The notes under the pieces: generated by a model
Told to the model about the DNA's origin: nothing
The model's database searches: none
Seen by the model: only the letters and a program-made list of their open reading frames with translations
Shown here: positions 22,283-50,936 of the stretch, piece after piece
Numbering within the stretch: position 1 is the stretch's first letter
How the letters are laid out: every line of letters starts with the position of its first letter
Source: Pseudomonas phage SM1
Reading direction: 5' to 3' (one strand)
Sequence record: NC_041877.1
DNA length: 64,000 nt
Made by a program: the position numbers and the translations under genes

Positions 22283-22306
22283 TGCAAGCGTTTGCACGGA
22301 GATACT

Positions 22307-22867
22307 ATGACCATTCTTTCCTATACCCGTCTTTGCGAAGTAGTGGACCGGGGCTATCTTAGTGGCCTTGAGGATCGGAGCCAGATAAACGCTGCAAGCA
22401 TAGACGTTCGTCTGGGTTGCACCTTTCTAGTAGAAGACGCACCTTTCGACGAGGACTATTTCACAGAACCTCCTTTGCTGAATGTAGATTTGGCGGCCAG
22501 GGAATCTGTGTGTTTCAGGGAACATAAGGGACGGATCAGGCTGGAGCCAATGGAATTTGTACTGGCCCATACTGTGGAGCAGTTTAACCTCCCGGACTGG
22601 TTATCCTGTGAATTCTCATTGAAGTCCTCCATCGCCAGGAATGGCTTGGAGCACCTCAACGCGTGTTGGGTGGATGCCGGGTTCAGTAGCTCGGTACTCA
22701 CCCTTGAACTGAAGAACATGACCCGTCATCATGCGCTGGTGCTAAGGCCCGGTATGCTGATCGGGCAGCTCAAGTTCTTCGAGCATGAACCGGTGCCGGA
22801 AGAGCAGAGCTATCGCAATCGCGGTCGCTACAACGGTGATGCTTCGGTGAGCACTATCAAACCGTGA
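22307..22867 (+). CDS. dcd: dCTP deaminase family protein (dUTPase superfamily)
   Basis: SIDVRLG, RSSIARNGLEHL...DAGFSSSVLTLELKN, LRPGMLIGQL align along the length of bacterial dCTP deaminase. Confidence 0.75.
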   Translation: MTILSYTRLCEVVDRGYLSGLEDRSQINAASIDVRLGCTFLVEDAPFDEDYFTEPPLLNVDLAARESVCFREHKGRIRLEPMEFVLAHTVEQFNLPDWLSCEFSLKSSIARNGLEHLNACWVDAGFSSSVLTLELKNMTRHHALVLRPGMLIGQLKFFEHEPVPEEQSYRNRGRYNGDASVSTIKP

Positions 22868-22882
22868 GCAAAGGAGTAACAC

Positions 22883-23698
22883 ATGGCTAAAGGTGAACAG
22901 GGCAAAGCTCGAAACGGTAGCCGTAAAAATCGCCGCGATGACGATGTGATGCGGGATGACTTCGAGGCCAGAATGGAGGGGCCCGTAAAGAAGTCTTGGA
23001 CATTGCATGATCTGGTACCGCTGGAGCCGGGTTCGGATAACCAGCGTGCGGCTATCGAGGCCTACTGCCAAGGTGACCATCTCGCCATGCTCGGCTCTGC
23101 CGGGGCGGGCAAGACTACCTTAGCGTGCTATCTGGCAGCAGGGTCTTTAGTGAGGAATGAGGTTGAGAAAATCATCCTTGTTCGTTCTGCCGTAGAGCAG
23201 CGAGAGCAGGGCTTCGTACCCGGTACCCAAGAAGAGAAAGATGCCAAATTCGAAGAGCCGTATGTCTCGGCCTTCGGCCACATCTTTGGCCACCCCACCA
23301 CTTACCAGTGGATGAAGCGGCGTGGATTGATCGAGTTCCGTACGACTGGCAATCTACGGAGTCTGAATTTCGATAATGCGGTAGTCGTGGGTGATGAAGT
23401 GCAGAATCTCAATTTCGAGGAGTTGCATACTTTCATAACCCGTCTAGGCCCTCGTTCTAGGTTGATCATGTGCGGAGACCAAGCGCAGTGCGACCTGAAG
23501 CGGTTCGAGATCAAAGGGCTGCCGATTTTCGAGGAGCTGGCAGGCGACTTGCCAAACCTCACAGTTGTGAAGTTCAGCAGACATGACTGCCTTCGTCATG
23601 GATTTGTCCGCGCATGGCTCGGTGCCGTCGAGGACTGGCACAAGCGTCGGGAGGAAACACGACCCGTAGCCGATATAACCACGAAGGTAGCCGGCTAG
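22883..23698 (+). CDS. PhoH-like P-loop ATPase
   Basis: AAGGAG RBS; Walker A MLGSAGAGKTTLA, Walker B VVVGDEVQNL, and GDQAQCDL (PhoH signature GD.xQ.D). Confidence 0.7.
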   Translation: MAKGEQGKARNGSRKNRRDDDVMRDDFEARMEGPVKKSWTLHDLVPLEPGSDNQRAAIEAYCQGDHLAMLGSAGAGKTTLACYLAAGSLVRNEVEKIILVRSAVEQREQGFVPGTQEEKDAKFEEPYVSAFGHIFGHPTTYQWMKRRGLIEFRTTGNLRSLNFDNAVVVGDEVQNLNFEELHTFITRLGPRSRLIMCGDQAQCDLKRFEIKGLPIFEELAGDLPNLTVVKFSRHDCLRHGFVRAWLGAVEDWHKRREETRPVADITTKVAG

Positions 23699-23750
23699 TA
23701 GACACCAGCCACTATAGCCGTCCTTCGGGGCGGCTTTTTACGGGGAGCGG

Positions 23751-24081
23751 TATGGGATACAAACTGTTCAGCACTTTCCAGGCAACGCCTAGTACGCTGG
23801 GAGAAGTAAAGCCTGTTTTCTATCTTGATTTAGCTGGCCCGTCGCATAAATGTTTATGGCGATTTGAGGGGCAAGTGGCATCCTCTGTTTCTCACGATAG
23901 TAATCTACAGTGTGTTGTCGAGGTTGAGTTCGAAGTAGCAAAACCGATCAGCTATTCGGCCCTTGCTCCGTTGGCTATCTCGGTGATGAGGGACGCGATA
24001 CGTGAGGCGGAAGAGGAGCCGGGAGGGTGGGCTGCTATGAAGTGGAGCGTCTATGCCAAACCGCGACACAGCCATGTGTAG
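23751..24081 (+). CDS. hypothetical protein
   Basis: ATG after GGGGAGCGGT; 110-aa ORF; longer ORF-track version 23614 overlaps the phoH-like 3' end. Confidence 0.4.
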
Positions 24082-24109
24082 TTGACACTACTTTTCAAAA
24101 GAGTATTAT
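24082..24109 (+). promoter_or_regulatory. sigma70-like promoter (TTGACA-16-TATTAT)
   Basis: Consensus -35 TTGACA at 24082-24087, 16-nt spacer, -10 TATTAT at 24104-24109; reads into the ORF-free RNA region. Confidence 0.55.
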
Positions 24110-24122
24110 TGAGGGCGTAGAG

Positions 24123-24168
24123 CGGGCTCGGCGTTATTTTCACTACTTCCGTCGAGCCCGTTTTCTCC
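24123..24168 (+). terminator. terminator-like hairpin downstream of the promoter (possible short RNA or attenuator)
   Basis: CGGGCTCG ...22-nt loop... CGAGCCCG followed by TTTTCTCCCC. Confidence 0.4.
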
Positions 24169-24767
24169 CCATACGTGTGGGTCCTGGGTTCAACCTAGCT
24201 GGGCTGAATCAACCGCCTAGGGCTCACACGTATGGCGAGACCCGGTAGCACCGGGGTGATAAACGCAACACGCTACGAAACGTGAGGCTCCCATCCAATG
24301 GTGACATTGGCTAATATGGGGAGTAGGTGGCAGGGCGGAAAGCACGTTAGCGCTGACGTTAGGCACTCCAATTTTGGAATGCGTAGCACGGCCCTGGGAA
24401 GTAGGCACAATGCGCCCGCGCTCTAGTTGTAGCAACAGAGCGCCCACGCGACTAGGCACGTTTGCGTCAATCCCCTCCGAGCAGGTTAGTAGGAGGGTGA
24501 GGGCCTCTACCTCAAAACTCTGCGGATGCGCGCTGGTCGTTGCGGGGGTCGTCTAGAGGCTCTAAACTGTAGCTAGTCGGGGTAGCGTCCGACCGCCATA
24601 TTTGATCTGTTGTTACGGGGTGGCAGGTTGTTCAGGACCTGATGCTCTATGGCTACGTATCGTAGCCACGGCTGAAACACTGAACCGAGGGGCTGGAAGG
24701 GGCCCCTGCCAAACAAATGCAAGCGTTTGCACTCTACGTAGAACGGATCACGGGAGGCAAAACTTGG

Positions 24768-24839
24768 GGGGTGGTAGCTCAGGGGTAGAGCGAGCGTTTT
24801 CTAAACGCTTGGGCGTGGGTTCGAATCCCACTCACTCCA
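24768..24839 (+). tRNA. tRNA-Arg (anticodon TCT)
   Basis: Manual cloverleaf: acceptor GGGGTGG/TCACTCC, D arm GCTC-AGGGGTA-GAGC, anticodon arm AGCGT-TTTCTAA-ACGCT, T arm GTGGG-TTCGAAT-CCCAC, discriminator A; CCA not encoded. Confidence 0.8.
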
Positions 24840-24907
24840 TCTAGAAGTTTAGATGCCACGGAAGGCGTCTACCTAGAATTGCTGTAATCCCTTCAAAGGG
24901 GAAACGT

Positions 24908-24942
24908 GGCGGACGGGGGTTCGATTCCCCCCAGCTCCACCA
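24908..24942 (+). ncRNA. tmRNA (ssrA) 3'-end-like segment: T arm, acceptor 3' strand and encoded CCA
   Basis: GGCGGACGGGGGTTCGATTCCCCCCAGCTCCACCA closely resembles the 3' end of proteobacterial tmRNA (…GGACGCGGGTTCAACTCCCGCCAGCTCCACCA); no canonical tRNA 5' half could be paired upstream. Confidence 0.4.
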
Positions 24943-25266
24943 AAGACATTCTCGGCCAGCACGTTCGTTCCTAGGTGTGAGAAGGTGGCTGCGATACTGC
25001 CGGGTGGTTGCTAGGAACATCATTCGGAAAGTCCAGCTAGAGAGTGTCTCTGATGGGGCTGTTCAGGATTCGACGCCGCGCGTACTTAGCGAAGGCAGCA
25101 AGGAAAGGCGACGCACCTTGACGCGCGCAAATCGATAAACGCCAACGATACTTCGTTCGACGTTCGCCTCGCAGCCTAAACCCCTGCGGAGTGACGGGTA
25201 GCCTCCGGGCTTCCTCCCCCTGCTACGGCTAGTACCCGTAGTTGCCTTGGAACAGAAAGGGGAGGG

Positions 25267-25342
25267 CCTTCGCGTAGGCGCACTGACGGTCGGCACTCCA
25301 CCGCACGCCTGTCAGGGGGCTGTCAGTGCGCCTACGCGAAGG
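25267..25342. repeat. 21-bp perfect inverted repeat (CCTTCGCGTAGGCGCACTGAC / GTCAGTGCGCCTACGCGAAGG) with a 34-nt loop
   Basis: Exact reverse-complement arms at 25267-25287 and 25322-25342. Confidence 0.85.
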
Positions 25343-25665
25343 TAGCGATAGTGACCTTCGATCACAAGTGGATATTTCTGCTACGCAACGGGCAGTGCCC
25401 GTCACTCTGTCTAACCTTCGGGCGAGACTGGCAAGGCCACCACCGGCATAGCCGGCGCTGGAAACAGAAGGTGGCCAATTTCAGGAATCAGTGAGCTAGA
25501 GCCTGCGGGCCATGACTAGGGGACACACTTCAGTGTGGACGGTAATGCTCGCCGGGCGCCGCGCTAGCCTCTCTCGTCAAGAGGTACACCCCAGGGGGGT
25601 AACGTTGACCACCCCGCCGGCTCTAGCTCAGTGATCCCTACCCACACCAGACAGAGGATCGGAAA

Positions 25666-26493
25666 ATGTCTGATGTACTTGAGCCCTTCTATCGGACGGG
25701 CCGCACCACCCGAGCGCTACACTACGTCGCCATGTGCGCGGTCGAAGGCCAGAAGATTGCCTTTCACTGCCCCAATAAAGAGTCTACTTCGCTTAGCGTC
25801 CAAGCTTTCATGGGGCTTCTCTGCGCCTCATTTGTACGTTACGAGGCCAAACAGCTAGACAAGGGATACCTATTCGGTACCCACGAGATCACGGTGATAG
25901 ACGACGTAGGCCGCTCTCGTGGCTCAGTCGCGTTCTTCACATACCGCAACGGCAGTCTAGGGCCTGACGGTAATCACCGGGAGCTTAGCGAATTCAAGAA
26001 CGTCTTCGATCCGTCCTGCTTCGAGCAGGACCCAAGACTGAGGAAGATTCTCTACGCATACCATGCCTTCGACGATCAGAACGAAACCACGACTCCACGC
26101 AACGTGCGCAACGCTATGTCGGCGCAGAAGGGTCTGCGGGGTAACTCCAGCATCCGCGACGACGGTGCGTATTGGGAGCGCCGTATCGTTCGCAAACTCG
26201 CTGAGGCTGGCGTCAAGGATGTTGTACCGGGCAAGAACAAGGTAGACGACATCGGCTATGGCCATCGTTTCTCCATTCCGTTCAATGCGGCCACATCGCT
26301 ATCGATTCCGGACGAAGCAGCCAAAGGCGAGTACCTCCCCGACTGGCAGGCCTGCCTGGGCATCTCCAACGAGCCGCCGGTACACGAGGCCCTGTCCAAC
26401 TTCTCCGAAGACCAAACCGAGAATAACGCTGTGTGCGTGATTCGGGCTATTGTTACTTCCATCCGGGCCCGAATCTTCAAGGCGTTTCCCTGA
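25666..26493 (+). CDS. hypothetical protein
   Basis: RBS GAGGATCGGAAA then ATG; 275-aa ORF; no recognised motif. Confidence 0.5.
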   Translation: MSDVLEPFYRTGRTTRALHYVAMCAVEGQKIAFHCPNKESTSLSVQAFMGLLCASFVRYEAKQLDKGYLFGTHEITVIDDVGRSRGSVAFFTYRNGSLGPDGNHRELSEFKNVFDPSCFEQDPRLRKILYAYHAFDDQNETTTPRNVRNAMSAQKGLRGNSSIRDDGAYWERRIVRKLAEAGVKDVVPGKNKVDDIGYGHRFSIPFNAATSLSIPDEAAKGEYLPDWQACLGISNEPPVHEALSNFSEDQTENNAVCVIRAIVTSIRARIFKAFP

Positions 26494-26854: not shown

Positions 26855-28863
26855 TGGCTGATCAAGAGAATACTCAACCTACCCAAAGGGAAGGGTTGTG
26901 TGGGCCTACGATAGTAGCCTATTTGCTCGTTAGACCGGATGGAAGCCTGTCGATGGATGCAGTCAGGCACAAGCCGAAACAACCCGCCGTTGCAGTTATG
27001 GCCGTAGATGAGCACGCTGCTAGTGTTGCCAGATGGGCAGAAATGTTCAATCGTGCTATTGAAGGGCATGGGCATGTTTTTCCGCGTGCGGATGGAGTAA
27101 AGATGCGGTGCGGCGGCCCTGGGCTCTGCTCGAAATGCACTGCCGACGCTTCTCTCGTCCATCCGTGCCCGGCACATCCTGCGGTAGAGCAGGCAGGCGG
27201 AGATGCGCGCAAACTGTCAGACCTCGGTAACGAATTGCACAACCTTTCGTGCTCGATCATTCACGAAAACGAGGAATGGGCTGAACAGATCGGCGGCATT
27301 GCCCGCGAGCTTTGGAATTGGCCACAAGCCCGCGCTGCCCTGGCGCACGACGAACAAGAACAGGCAGCACATGAACTCAGGCTGCTGGCAAACGCACTTG
27401 GCGAGTGCATTCAGGCGGCTGGCATTACTGCGCCCGGAGTGCCATTGACTGGGCCGCAGCTTCTCATGTTCGCCGAAGACCTGAAGCGCGATCTGCAACG
27501 CTCCTCCCTAGCGCAACCCTCCCCGAAGTGCGCGACCTGCAACGGCTCGAAAGTCGTTTCCACGACGGACACCGATCACAACGGCGACTACATCGAAGCG
27601 CCCTGTCCGAAGTGCTGCGGCACTGGCGAAGCAGATTCCGGTGGCGCCCACCCATGGGGAGAGCCGGTCTTGATCCCCTGTGACTGCGAGACAGAGCAGG
27701 CAGAGCCGGAACTGGAGCCGCATATACCTGCACAGAACATCGCTGAGGCCGCAATAGAGCAGTTGATTAAGTCTGGCGCCAAACACTATCAGGAATTCCA
27801 TTTCGACCTCCACCTTGATGGTCAGGAAGGGGCACGCCCTGTTGTCGTGACAGTAGCGTTTTCTGATGGGCCGTCTGCGCACGAACTACGCATGAAAGCA
27901 GAGCAAGAGCGCGACGCCGCTCTGGCCGAAGTCGAGCGCCTGAGTGAGTCAAAAGGTGACCCTGTTGGCAGCCTCGAAAAGTGCATGAAAGTGATGTACG
28001 AGCGCGACGAAAACGCTAAGCGGCTGGAAGCCGCCCTGGCCAGGGTGGCGGAGTTGGAAGGGAAGTTGACGGACTGGGTGCACGAAGGGTTCCGGCTCAA
28101 CGAGGCGCTAGCGGTCGCCAAGGCTCAGCACAGCGTGCCGGATGACGACATGATCTTGCAGATTTTTGCCGATAATGCTGAGCACTCGGAGCAAGGCGAC
28201 GAGCATGGTTACTGTATCGTGCGCGAACAGCATGCTCAAGCAATTGCGCGAAAACTGCTCGCCGCCGCGCCCGGCAACTCGGCTCAGCACAGCGTACCGG
28301 AGGGCTGGAAGCTGGTTCCGATTGAGCCGCTTCTCAACATGATGAGCGACAAGGACCACGACACCCGAATTACGGCTGAGCGCCAACTGCTTTCGATACT
28401 CGCCGACGCGCCCGCCCAGGCTCAGCACAGCGCGCCGGAAGTGTCAGGGATCGGACGCGACACTGGTCATCCGCGCGCGGTCGTTCTGTACCTACGCAAG
28501 GAGCCGACCGACGATGATCTGCGAGCCATCCATGATGCTCTGCGCTCTCTCGCCGCCGCGCCCGGCAAGGAAGTGCCACAGGCATGGCTCGACGTGCAGG
28601 CAGAGCGCCGCCGGCAGATCACCGCCGAGGGATGGACGCCGGAGCACGACGACCTCTATTGCGCCGCCGAACTTCCGCGCGCCGCAGCGGCATACATCCT
28701 CAACGGAGCCAATGACGAGGCGCCGGCTATCTGGCCGTTCTCGGCGAAGTGGTGGAAACCCCGCGACGCGCGTGCCAACTACGTGCGGGCAGCCGCCCTG
28801 ATCCTGGCCGAGATCGAGCGACTGGACCGCGCCGCGCCCGGTAAGGATGTAGGCCATGAGTAA
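26854..28863 (+). CDS. large hypothetical protein with a DnaJ-type CxxCxGxG zinc-finger-like motif and internal AQHSVP/AAPG repeats
   Basis: GTG start abutting the previous stop; CATCNGSKVV...CPKCCGTGE; three copies of GCTCAGCACAGCG(T)(G/A)CCGGA at about 150-bp spacing (28124, 28272, 28423). Confidence 0.5.
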   Translation: MADQENTQPTQREGLCGPTIVAYLLVRPDGSLSMDAVRHKPKQPAVAVMAVDEHAASVARWAEMFNRAIEGHGHVFPRADGVKMRCGGPGLCSKCTADASLVHPCPAHPAVEQAGGDARKLSDLGNELHNLSCSIIHENEEWAEQIGGIARELWNWPQARAALAHDEQEQAAHELRLLANALGECIQAAGITAPGVPLTGPQLLMFAEDLKRDLQRSSLAQPSPKCATCNGSKVVSTTDTDHNGDYIEAPCPKCCGTGEADSGGAHPWGEPVLIPCDCETEQAEPELEPHIPAQNIAEAAIEQLIKSGAKHYQEFHFDLHLDGQEGARPVVVTVAFSDGPSAHELRMKAEQERDAALAEVERLSESKGDPVGSLEKCMKVMYERDENAKRLEAALARVAELEGKLTDWVHEGFRLNEALAVAKAQHSVPDDDMILQIFADNAEHSEQGDEHGYCIVREQHAQAIARKLLAAAPGNSAQHSVPEGWKLVPIEPLLNMMSDKDHDTRITAERQLLSILADAPAQAQHSAPEVSGIGRDTGHPRAVVLYLRKEPTDDDLRAIHDALRSLAAAPGKEVPQAWLDVQAERRRQITAEGWTPEHDDLYCAAELPRAAAAYILNGANDEAPAIWPFSAKWWKPRDARANYVRAAALILAEIERLDRAAPGKDVGHE

Positions 28864-29179
28864 AGTGAAGCGATTCTACGCCCCTGGCCTGGATTGCCTT
28901 TACCGCAGCGATGCAGACGCACCCCGGCAACTGATTGCTCTGGTTCTGGGGTCGGATTACGACGCACTCGCCGCCAAGCTGGCCATGGCCGAGGACGCAG
29001 CAGCAAAGGGAGATGCTGCTCGCCAGCAATGCGGCGGAATGGGGATGGAGATCGAGGAACTTCGCGCTGAACTAGCGGAACTGCGCGCAAGGGTGGTGGT
29101 TTTGCCGGAGCCGTTGAACGAAGGCGATGCTCGACGAGAATGCGGGGGAGTACGGAGCGGCCATGCAGCGTGGATATAA
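28856..29179 (+). CDS. hypothetical protein
   Basis: ATG 28856 overlaps the upstream stop; 107-aa ORF. Confidence 0.4.
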   Translation: MSKVKRFYAPGLDCLYRSDADAPRQLIALVLGSDYDALAAKLAMAEDAAAKGDAARQQCGGMGMEIEELRAELAELRARVVVLPEPLNEGDARRECGGVRSGHAAWI

Positions 29180-50126: not shown

Positions 50127-50936
50127 ATGGAGAATATAGAAATGTCTGAGAATGAAAGACCGAAAGTAGATATCACGGCCAAAATGCGCCAGGAGATCAG
50201 CCTGTTCGTAGCCAAAAGGCGGGTGTTGGATACTCCGGCTTCCGAGTGGTTCTCCAGCGGAAGTTTGGTGCAGGTTTATTTGCGGGCCGGTAGGTACGCG
50301 CACGACCGGCAGACCGATAGTTTCGAGTACGCAATCGGGCTGTCAAATATCTCGGTAAACCCAAAGTTTCATTGCCGAGGCGTGTTCTCGCGAGTTCTCG
50401 AACATCTGGAGGCCATGGCGAAAGAGCTGAACTACAGCTACGTGCAGGTTGAGCAAGTAATGCATCCCTGGCTTGGTGCGCGCCTCGAAGCTCGCGGGTA
50501 CAAGATACTGCACGCGGGTGAGCTGGCCCCGATTTATCGGAAACCTGTAGCTTGGGATGGCCGTATAGACAGTGCCGAGCTATCGATCTACACCTACCCA
50601 ATACCCAACGGGGAAGGTAGCTGGGCCCGTGCTATGGCTACTAAAACAGGGGTAGCGGTTTGTCATAAACCGTCAGGGATCGAGGTGCGATCAAGTCTTC
50701 AGTTCTCCGTACATGCGAACCGGCATATGGCTTTCTCGGTTTTGCATAACGGCCTGGGGCGGTCGGATGCGGTAGTATTGGAGCAACAATTGAAGAAGGC
50801 TTGCGACCTCCTCCATAACGCAACGCTTACGCTCCATTCCGGCGAGAAACGCGCAGACATCACCGAGTTTCTCAACGAAGTCCAGTACACCGGAACCCGA
50901 GGATTGGCGCAGCGGGACGAAGAAGAGTCCGAATAG
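50127..50936 (+). CDS. hypothetical protein, possibly a GNAT-like acyltransferase
   Basis: Weak GNAT motif-A-like NISVNPKFHCRGVFSRVLEHL. Confidence 0.35.
   Translation: MENIEMSENERPKVDITAKMRQEISLFVAKRRVLDTPASEWFSSGSLVQVYLRAGRYAHDRQTDSFEYAIGLSNISVNPKFHCRGVFSRVLEHLEAMAKELNYSYVQVEQVMHPWLGARLEARGYKILHAGELAPIYRKPVAWDGRIDSAELSIYTYPIPNGEGSWARAMATKTGVAVCHKPSGIEVRSSLQFSVHANRHMAFSVLHNGLGRSDAVVLEQQLKKACDLLHNATLTLHSGEKRADITEFLNEVQYTGTRGLAQRDEEESE

Follow-up and report, generated by a model that had tools for sequence, protein, structure and literature searches.

What lies behind a tRNA gene that is followed, in the genome of a lytic phage, by what looks like the 3' end of a transfer-messenger RNA (tmRNA)? 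The question is raised by positions 24768-24942 of a 64,000-nucleotide stretch of Pseudomonas phage SM1 (sequence record NC_041877.1), which was analysed at its full length and is called the window below. A sequence-only reading of this DNA had left three answers side by side: an attP-like remnant of integration into the tmRNA gene ssrA, an isolated tRNA-like fragment, or the acceptor piece of a permuted, two-piece tmRNA. Our analysis identified a whole ssrA gene, circularly permuted and of the type found in Rhodocyclales (beta-proteobacteria), in the stretch from 24880 to about 25264/25342, and we are almost certain that this gene is genuine and complete. As the explanation of the whole, it is likely that this lytic P. 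aeruginosa siphophage carries a complete beta-type permuted ssrA, which probably works in ribosome rescue.

A complete permuted tmRNA gene

The window belongs to Samunavirus (the SM1/PaMx31 group), a genus of lytic phages of which SM1 is the type species. The 12 kb around the locus are 98-99% identical to the corresponding regions of UF_RH6, vB_PaeS_FBPa45, PaMx31 and PA_L9, all of them Pseudomonas aeruginosa siphophages of about 93 kb from this genus. The tmRNA gene is kept in all four of these complete relatives, where ARAGORN makes a permuted call with the same tag as in the window. It is unannotated in every Samunavirus record examined, with the FBPa45 record annotating only the neighboring tRNA.

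Two of the programs that the sequence-only reading had proposed as checks both call a permuted tmRNA. Scanning the 64-kb window with Rfam, we recovered tmRNA_permuted (RF04321) at 24880-25179 over the full model (positions 1-213; 118.6 bits against a cutoff of 47, E=1.6e-22) and beta_tmRNA (RF01850) at 24828-25219 (111.2 bits against a cutoff of 84, E=5.3e-33). ARAGORN calls a permuted tmRNA (tmRNA*) at 24850-25270 with the tag ANDTSFDVRLAA, placing the 3' tRNA domain at 24904-24942, the 5' tRNA domain at 25055-25081 and the tag at 25141-25179. A pattern for the junction had a single match in the window, and 100 shuffles gave none.

The gene, which like all features described here lies on the plus strand unless stated otherwise, runs in the order acceptor piece, spacer, coding piece. 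The acceptor piece (24880-24942), delimited by the Rfam alignments, ARAGORN and covariation, comprises the 5' strands of helix P2 (24880-24911), a T arm of the form GGGGG-UUCGAUU-CCCCC (stem strands 24915-19 and 24927-31), the acceptor 3' strand CAGCUCC (24932-38) and the discriminator A with an encoded CCA (24939-42). The T arm, the CAGCTCC strand and the CCA had been reported about 70 nucleotides (nt) past the tRNA; they are indeed there, in the 35-nt string GGCGGACGGGGGTTCGATTCCCCCCAGCTCCACCA at 24908-24942, which starts 68 nt past the tRNA gene. Then follows a 112-nt intervening spacer (24943-25054), presumably excised, with a basal stem formed by 24944-53 and 25040-49. The coding piece, for which ARAGORN, Rfam, covariation and co-folding agree, extends from 25055 to at least 25264. 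It opens, 112 nt downstream of the CCA, with the acceptor 5' strand GGGGCUG (25055-25061), directly continued by UUCAGGAUUCGA. Next come the 3' strands of P2 (25074-25100), of which 25074-80 pair with 24905-11 and 25096-25100 with 24880-84, and a hairpin of the PK1 region, AAGG...CCUU (25101-25119), that aligns to the Rfam element. The tag frame at 25141-25179 reads GCC AAC GAU ACU UCG UUC GAC GUU CGC CUC GCA GCC UAA, that is, ANDTSFDVRLAA and a stop. It starts without a start codon on the alanine resume codon GCC, directly preceded by an AUAAAC that is conserved in the bacterial genes, and it closes with the hydrophobic end LAA and a UAA stop. Post-tag helices reach to about 25264.

Base pairing in the acceptor stem and P2 joins the two pieces into an alanine-tRNA-like domain. 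Every pair of the acceptor stem (25055-61/24932-38) and of the T arm is standard and has the backing of the covariation described below, the T loop is of the canonical, conserved GGUUCGAnUCC type, and the alanine identity set is present as G3:U70 (G25057:U24936), A73 (A24939) and the CCA at 24940-42. Of the three earlier answers, the acceptor piece of a two-piece tmRNA is thus the one borne out, with a coding piece bearing a canonical tag frame 112 nt downstream and pairing with it, and the isolated fragment falls on the same observation. The acceptor 5' strand had been sought too far downstream: the GGGGCTG suggested near 25317 (25316-25322) lies in the apical part of a 26-bp hairpin and is partly lost in UF_RH6 to an 11-nt deletion, and the true partner is the GGGGCUG at 25055-25061.

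Folding and covariation of the two pieces

Covariation was counted over the tRNA-like domain and P2 in 16 distinct sequences, on equal-length helical segments extracted by anchors, since MAFFT placed the 3' strand of the phage P2 one column out of register. Standard pairs occupy 98.6% of the helix cells, and G3:U70 is invariant in all 16 sequences. Between the phages and the bacteria, 11 of the 32 helix pairs have changed on both sides and still pair, a number reached in none of 500 shuffles and compared with 0-3 in slid controls; all of these double changes fall between a single phage clade and a single bacterial clade, and they therefore stand for few independent events. Within Samunavirus, the single change in the P2a helix of UF_RH6 yields a G:U that still pairs. 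The complementary double changes, together with the degree of pairing, argue against a decaying pseudogene.

An unconstrained co-fold of 24880-24942 with 25055-25140 rebuilt the acceptor stem, P2a, the outer P2 and the T arm, recovering 19 of the 23 expected intermolecular pairs. The binding energy was -13.7 kcal/mol against -5.5 +/- 2.3 for shuffles, of which none in 200 was as good. In the basal stem of the spacer, natural variants at one pair (24949:25044) preserve pairing: the window has U:G, PaMx31 and PA_L9 have C:G, and FBPa45 has U:A. Over its full length the spacer does not exceed shuffles in stability (z about 0), and hence we claim only its basal stem.

Relationship to the Rhodocyclales two-piece tmRNAs

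A search with a pattern made up of the T arm, the acceptor 3' strand and the motif AAG..CATTC returned 54 species-representative genomes, all of them Rhodocyclales-type beta-proteobacteria, with genera such as Azonexus, Dechloromonas, Thauera and Ferribacterium. In the Rhodocyclales-type genomes ARAGORN calls permuted tmRNAs with the tags ANDEQFAIAA, ANDERFALAA and ANDERFAVAA. The Rhodocyclales lineage of two-piece tmRNAs is credited to Sharkady and Williams (2004) in the survey of Buchholz et al. (PMC9004378).

The phage gene shares with these bacterial genes (RF01850) the gene order, the tRNA-like domain and the P2 architecture; the AAG..CAUUC motif that follows the acceptor end, along with the basal part of the spacer hairpin; and the resume context AUAAAC-GCC-AAC-GAU with the AND start of the tag. 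The acceptor pieces are 73% identical and the P2/PK1 and tag parts about 57%, and the flanks cannot be aligned; with gapped columns left out, identity to the bacterial genes is 64-66%. The bacterial genes are 86-95% identical among themselves. Several features set the phage gene apart. First, it encodes the full CCA, whereas 40 of the 40 bacterial genes examined end in ...CUCCACC-C, with the terminal A unencoded. Second, its spacer measures 112 nt against 26-38 nt in the bacteria, where it is a small hairpin; the phage spacer retains the base homologous to the 26-28 nt hairpin, with about 85 nt inserted in the loop. Third, the tag has 12 residues rather than 10. Finally, the gene resides in a phage of a gamma-proteobacterium and not on a beta-proteobacterial chromosome.

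Judged by sequence comparison, the nearest relatives of the phage gene appear to be the Rhodocyclales two-piece tmRNAs and not the tmRNA of the host; the ssrA of P. aeruginosa is a one-piece gene. By score it is a member of the RF01850 family, in which it would form a distinct, phage-borne branch.

Other phage carriers and a possible phage-borne branch

A search for the CCA-encoded form brought up two more phage-like contigs, L063 and L064, both unrelated to Samunavirus. A first viral scan, whose pattern ran from the T arm through the acceptor 3' strand to just past the CCA and demanded GGTTCGATTCC, returned nothing, and neither did a scan for the spacer-start motif. L063 (Ga0181591_10008985) is an AT-rich metagenome contig coding on a single strand for dCMP deaminases, a methyltransferase, a DUF6267 protein and members of several PHROG families. 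Its tmRNA scores 128 bits with beta_tmRNA and has the tag ANDDIYEDYALAA and an 86-nt spacer with Samunavirus-like ends; an AT-rich, promoter-like region of its own lies upstream, unlike in Samunavirus. L064 (IMGVR_UViG_3300033068_001287) is GC-rich and codes for a portal protein, a minor head protein, endonuclease VII and a tRNA-Met. Its tmRNA (85 bits, tag ANDSSFLMAANA, 91-nt spacer) has the same acceptor stem as Samunavirus, GGGGCUG/CAGCUCC, and a tag that ends in ANA, not LAA.

All three phage genes are thus of the beta-type permuted form, with an encoded CCA, a spacer of 86-112 nt and a tag of 12-13 residues starting with AND. In contrast, their genome backbones are unrelated and differ in GC content, and the genes are only 54-63% identical to one another. 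The derived traits that they have in common suggest an old branch of phage-borne genes. A match to the Burkholderia small RNA anti-hemB in Rfam (L064 7211-7299, 54.7 bits against a cutoff of 49.5) lies about 115 nt downstream of the L064 tmRNA and hints at a Burkholderia-type host for that phage. The acceptor piece and spacer of L063 recur in a further metagenome contig, L061 (446-640), where no coding piece comes after them. L061 is either an assembly chimera or a natural variant reduced to the acceptor piece, comparable to the tmRNA of mycobacteriophage DS6A that consists of the tRNA-like domain alone.

Phage tmRNAs have been on record since the Bxz1-type mycobacteriophages (PMC4131195), and Buchholz et al. 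(2022) counted 53 two-piece forms among 133 unique phage tmRNAs, one of the two-piece forms being mismatched in type to its host (PMC9004378). 'Pseudomonas_phage_SM1' appears in their Table S1 under two calls, one 'linear' and one 'Permuted' (PMC9004378), and ARAGORN gives the same pair of calls on the window. That the gene exists was therefore known before this analysis, as were phage two-piece tmRNAs in general, and the SM1 gene has never been described beyond that one table row. The present analysis assigns the gene to the beta (Rhodocyclales) type and adds evidence from covariation, a corrected anatomy, the phage-only traits and two further phage carriers.

Among described cases, the closest parallels are the methylophage Melnitz and the pelagimyophages (PMC9004378), which are likewise lytic, code for a complete permuted ssrA of a type mismatched to the host lineage, and have tRNA-Arg(TCT) genes in the same genomes. 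The Melnitz gene is of the alpha type, marine and linked to a glutamine riboswitch, whereas the Samunavirus gene is of the beta type, comes from soil or clinical P. aeruginosa phages, and is one of only three non-aquatic cases among the 53 two-piece phage tmRNAs. The tmRNAs of the Bxz1-group mycobacteriophages and of Bacillus phage G (PMC4131195) are also phage-borne and are presumed to boost or redirect rescue through host SmpB. Unlike the Samunavirus gene, they have the standard, non-permuted form and belong to other hosts and another lineage.

Predicted function and alternative explanations

The most likely function of the gene is ordinary trans-translation with host factors, every step beyond folding being a prediction from sequence. 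A strong promoter at 24082 would give rise to a long structured precursor, which in some of the phages would include the tRNA. Host RNase P would cut 5' of G25055 and host tRNA 3'-end enzymes would trim to the CCA at 24942, with loss of the 112-nt spacer. The resulting two-piece RNA would be charged by the host alanyl-tRNA synthetase (AlaRS) and brought by host SmpB and EF-Tu to ribosomes stalled on broken mRNAs during infection. There translation would resume on the tag, and the released protein, ending in LAA, would be degraded by ClpXP. The phage would gain extra ribosome-rescue capacity at a time when host and phage mRNAs are being degraded. The phage tag keeps the AND start, an aromatic residue and the LAA end, which in the host tag, ANDDNYALAA, act as the determinants for SspB and ClpX (PMC13159725), and the P. 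aeruginosa host possesses SmpB (PMC13159725). A function in rescue during infection is probable rather than assured.

Several points weigh against this proposal. First, the phage has no SmpB of its own, so that a gamma-proteobacterial SmpB must accept a beta-type two-piece tmRNA: tblastn with E. coli SmpB, a query that matched annotated smpB genes at 100%, returned nothing in the window, and among the 68 phage records it matched there was no Samunavirus. Second, the host tmRNA is non-essential, with ArfA and ArfB present (PMC13159725), and any benefit to the phage may therefore be small. Third, unlike the bacterial genes and L063, the phage gene has no dedicated promoter right upstream of its acceptor piece; hence the tmRNA must be cut from a longer transcript, and its 5' end needs an extra processing step. 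Fourth, the middle of the phage P2 favors a local hairpin in the co-fold, and of the putative PK1 one hairpin aligns to the Rfam element, no second stem being recognised by eye; the post-tag pseudoknots are likewise putative. Finally, conservation within the genus says little when the genomes are 98-99% identical.

The lack of a phage SmpB also fits the possibility, in our judgment an unlikely one, that the locus works as a decoy: the tRNA-like domain would be made and would titrate host SmpB or compete with the host tmRNA, so that tagging is changed or blocked. There is a precedent in mycobacteriophage DS6A, whose tmRNA of only a tRNA-like domain inhibits the host tmRNA when expressed in E. 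coli (PMC4131195, PMC11915505), and in L061 the acceptor piece and spacer are followed by no coding piece. However, the tag frame, the resume context, the stop and the LAA are all intact, as is the case in three deeply diverged phage lineages (apart from the ANA end in L064), and a pure decoy would need none of them.

It is more improbable still that the gene is a functionless passenger, a beta-proteobacterial ssrA copy acquired horizontally and now decaying. In favor of this, the identity to the bacterial genes is only about 57-66%, the adjoining tRNA is dispensable, and no record annotates the gene. Against decay stand the pairing of nearly all helix cells and the 11 compensatory pairs retained despite the divergence, the open tag frame with canonical ends, the P2a change of UF_RH6 that preserves pairing, and the persistence of this gene form in three unrelated phages.

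An attP-like remnant, or a 3' piece of ssrA stranded by integration into or excision from the host tmRNA gene, can be rejected. Integration at ssrA is common, and prophages do contain 3' fragments of the gene (PMC4383910, PMC9004378), but the gene here is complete and in permuted order, and the two-piece genes of Rhodocyclales are its relatives. Among the 30 window ORFs (open reading frames) scanned, none showed an integrase or recombinase domain, in line with the earlier statement that the window has no integrase. The close relative UF_RH6 has been described as lytic, and its genome as circularly permuted (PMC10281142).

The last candidate, a standard one-piece tmRNA at 24689-24942 with the tag ATEGVYLELL, can be dismissed: ARAGORN lists it, as does Table S1 of Buchholz et al. 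in its 'linear' call for SM1, but it would enclose a whole tRNA gene, its tag is inconsistent between near-identical phages, the call is missing from PA_L9 and UF_RH6, similar overlapping calls arise in two bacterial loci (L040 and L048), and there is no RF00023 match at 24689-24942 among the Rfam matches listed. This spurious call makes use of a second GGGGCUG at 24689, and it is the artefact that entered the published survey table as a 'linear' tmRNA of phage SM1.

The adjoining tRNA(UCU)

The tRNA gene at 24768-24839 was found as a cloverleaf by ARAGORN and scores 68.2 bits with RF00005 (cutoff 29); it has a UCU anticodon (C35, U36). The sequence-only reading had taken it for a canonical tRNA-Arg(TCT). 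The gene and its anticodon stand, and the description as canonical does not: the acceptor stem GGGGUGG/UCACUCC, in which G1-G4 pair with C69-U70-C71-C72, places a G3:U70 next to an A73, there is no encoded CCA, and the 7-nt D-loop, AGGGGUA, is without A20. These four pairs, with G3:U70 among them, and A73 make up the AlaRS identity set (PMC7373986). The best end-to-end match of this tRNA outside the genus is a tRNA-Ala. For the arginyl-tRNA synthetase, A20 in the D-loop is a major determinant. Among 118 UCU tRNAs with the same D-arm (117 viral ones and that of the window), 108 have an A after G18G19, and the combination of G3:U70, A73, no A20 and no encoded CCA occurs in only three, namely the window, L065 and L066; a scan of the full IMG/VR for this combination likewise returned only L065 and L066. 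The label 'tRNA-Arg' is therefore doubtful on the strength of these identity elements, given that G3:U70 is present and A20 is missing.

These traits open a broader interpretation, which we consider rather unlikely, in which the 1.6 kb block is a phage-adapted unit for the manipulation of translation. It would combine a phage-branch tmRNA moving between unrelated phages with, in some genomes, a co-transcribed UCU tRNA of alanine identity, both being AlaRS substrates. The tRNA may then insert alanine at the host-rare AGA codon in a deliberate mistranslation; alternatively, it may serve as a decoy or as a handle for processing. Evidence against a reading of AGA as alanine is that all five AGA codons checked are kept in PA_L9 and UF_RH6, the two phages without the tRNA. 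The AGA sites in PhoH and DNA polymerase I (Pol I) fall mostly at variable positions, with one aligning to a conserved arginine of Pol I. The retained codons and the conserved arginine indicate that AGA stands for arginine in this phage group.

Elsewhere in the window, residues ~140-215 of a 269-aa ORF (50127-50936) give weak but consistent matches to the RF-1 domain (GGQ peptidyl-tRNA hydrolase) with four libraries: PHROG 20323 (E=2e-6), NCBIfam PrfH, Pfam and the RF1 chains of the PDB. It has GEGSW where GGQ is expected. No homologues of this ORF were found outside the genus, and a single-sequence AlphaFold model was unusable (pLDDT 44.6). It might belong to the same translation theme.

The surrounding non-coding block and genome context

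The 1.58 kb around the tmRNA gene (24082-25665) form a block in which no ORF exceeds 80 aa. Directly past the stop of the upstream ORF, the block begins with a sigma-70-type promoter-like site, TTGACA-16 nt-TATTAT (24082-24109), which agrees with the consensus at 11 of 12 positions and is identical in sequence in FBPa45, PaMx31 and UF_RH6. No terminator-like site was found on the plus strand in 23600-26000. Between the promoter-like site and the tRNA lies a structured non-coding leader of about 650 nt (24112-24767; fold z=-6.8), found in Samunavirus records only. It contains a long hairpin at 24164-24240 (25-nt arms, 84% complementarity), and at 24560-24735 five of 49 predicted pairs are kept in UF_RH6 through changes on both sides. 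The leader may be another non-coding RNA or a processing scaffold.

Downstream, the post-tag region has a fold z of -3.7. Right after the coding piece, the 26-bp hairpin mentioned above (25265-25342; 21 bp perfect) is a candidate 3'-end or processing hairpin; the 11-nt deletion of UF_RH6 is confined to its loop. The structured non-coding trailer (25343-25665; z=-3.95), present only in this genus, includes an interrupted inverted repeat with 27-nt arms and 89% complementarity (25483-25509/25613-25639), and the next gene starts at 25666. The three long hairpins that flank the RNA genes have the length needed for RNase III substrates and could serve as such sites. An Rfam scan of 23900-25800 at E<=1 offered no family for the leader, the trailer or the hairpin and gave only chance matches, namely the miRNA hairpin mir-9198, below threshold and the sole match at the 26-bp hairpin, a plastid 3'UTR motif lying on T loops, and an opposite-strand IMES-2.

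In PA_L9 and UF_RH6 the slot of the tRNA (window 24736-24875) holds an 84-aa ORF instead (L002 and L003, 2748-2999). Its stop lies 2-3 nt before the tmRNA, and homology between the two variants resumes at 24876, 4 nt before the tmRNA. Of the two RNA genes it is thus the tmRNA that is conserved, the tRNA being exchangeable for an ORF and hence optional.

Nearly all long ORFs of the window are on the plus strand. They include a replication module (a DnaB-like helicase, Pol I, a primase-like protein, a helicase and a RecA-like protein) as well as ParB, methyltransferase proteins, a terminase-like protein and a portal protein. Just upstream of the RNA locus are genes for a dCTP-deaminase-like protein and PhoH, and tail-fibre-like proteins are encoded downstream. 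A search of IMG/VR with the downstream 275-aa protein gave no syntenic relatives. The locus only appears to be absent from BHU-1, BHU-15 and BHU-17: these records consist of coding sequences joined by 100-nt spacers and are uninformative on this point. The dCTP-deaminase-like protein and the PhoH homologue (window 22292-23698; UF_RH6, L003, 181-1572) match Pfam at 1e-24 and 2e-37, and the UF_RH6 and BHU records name them 'minor tail protein' and 'tail length tape-measure protein', probably through an annotation-transfer error. About 3 kb downstream of the RNA locus, a 107-aa ORF (28856-29179) matches a Lar-like restriction-alleviation family of PHROG (E=7e-16).

Significance

At the level of annotation, the gene is missing from the Samunavirus GenBank records examined, in phages that are used or considered for therapy against P. 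aeruginosa. The encoded CCA, the long spacer, the longer tag and the UCU tRNA of alanine identity are small testable leads and not established discoveries. More broadly, a phage-borne ribosome-rescue RNA bears on the takeover of translation during infection and on ideas for anti-trans-translation drugs against P. aeruginosa. P. aeruginosa and a culturable lytic phage together make a tractable system for the roles of phage tmRNAs, which have so far been a matter of speculation from marine phages.

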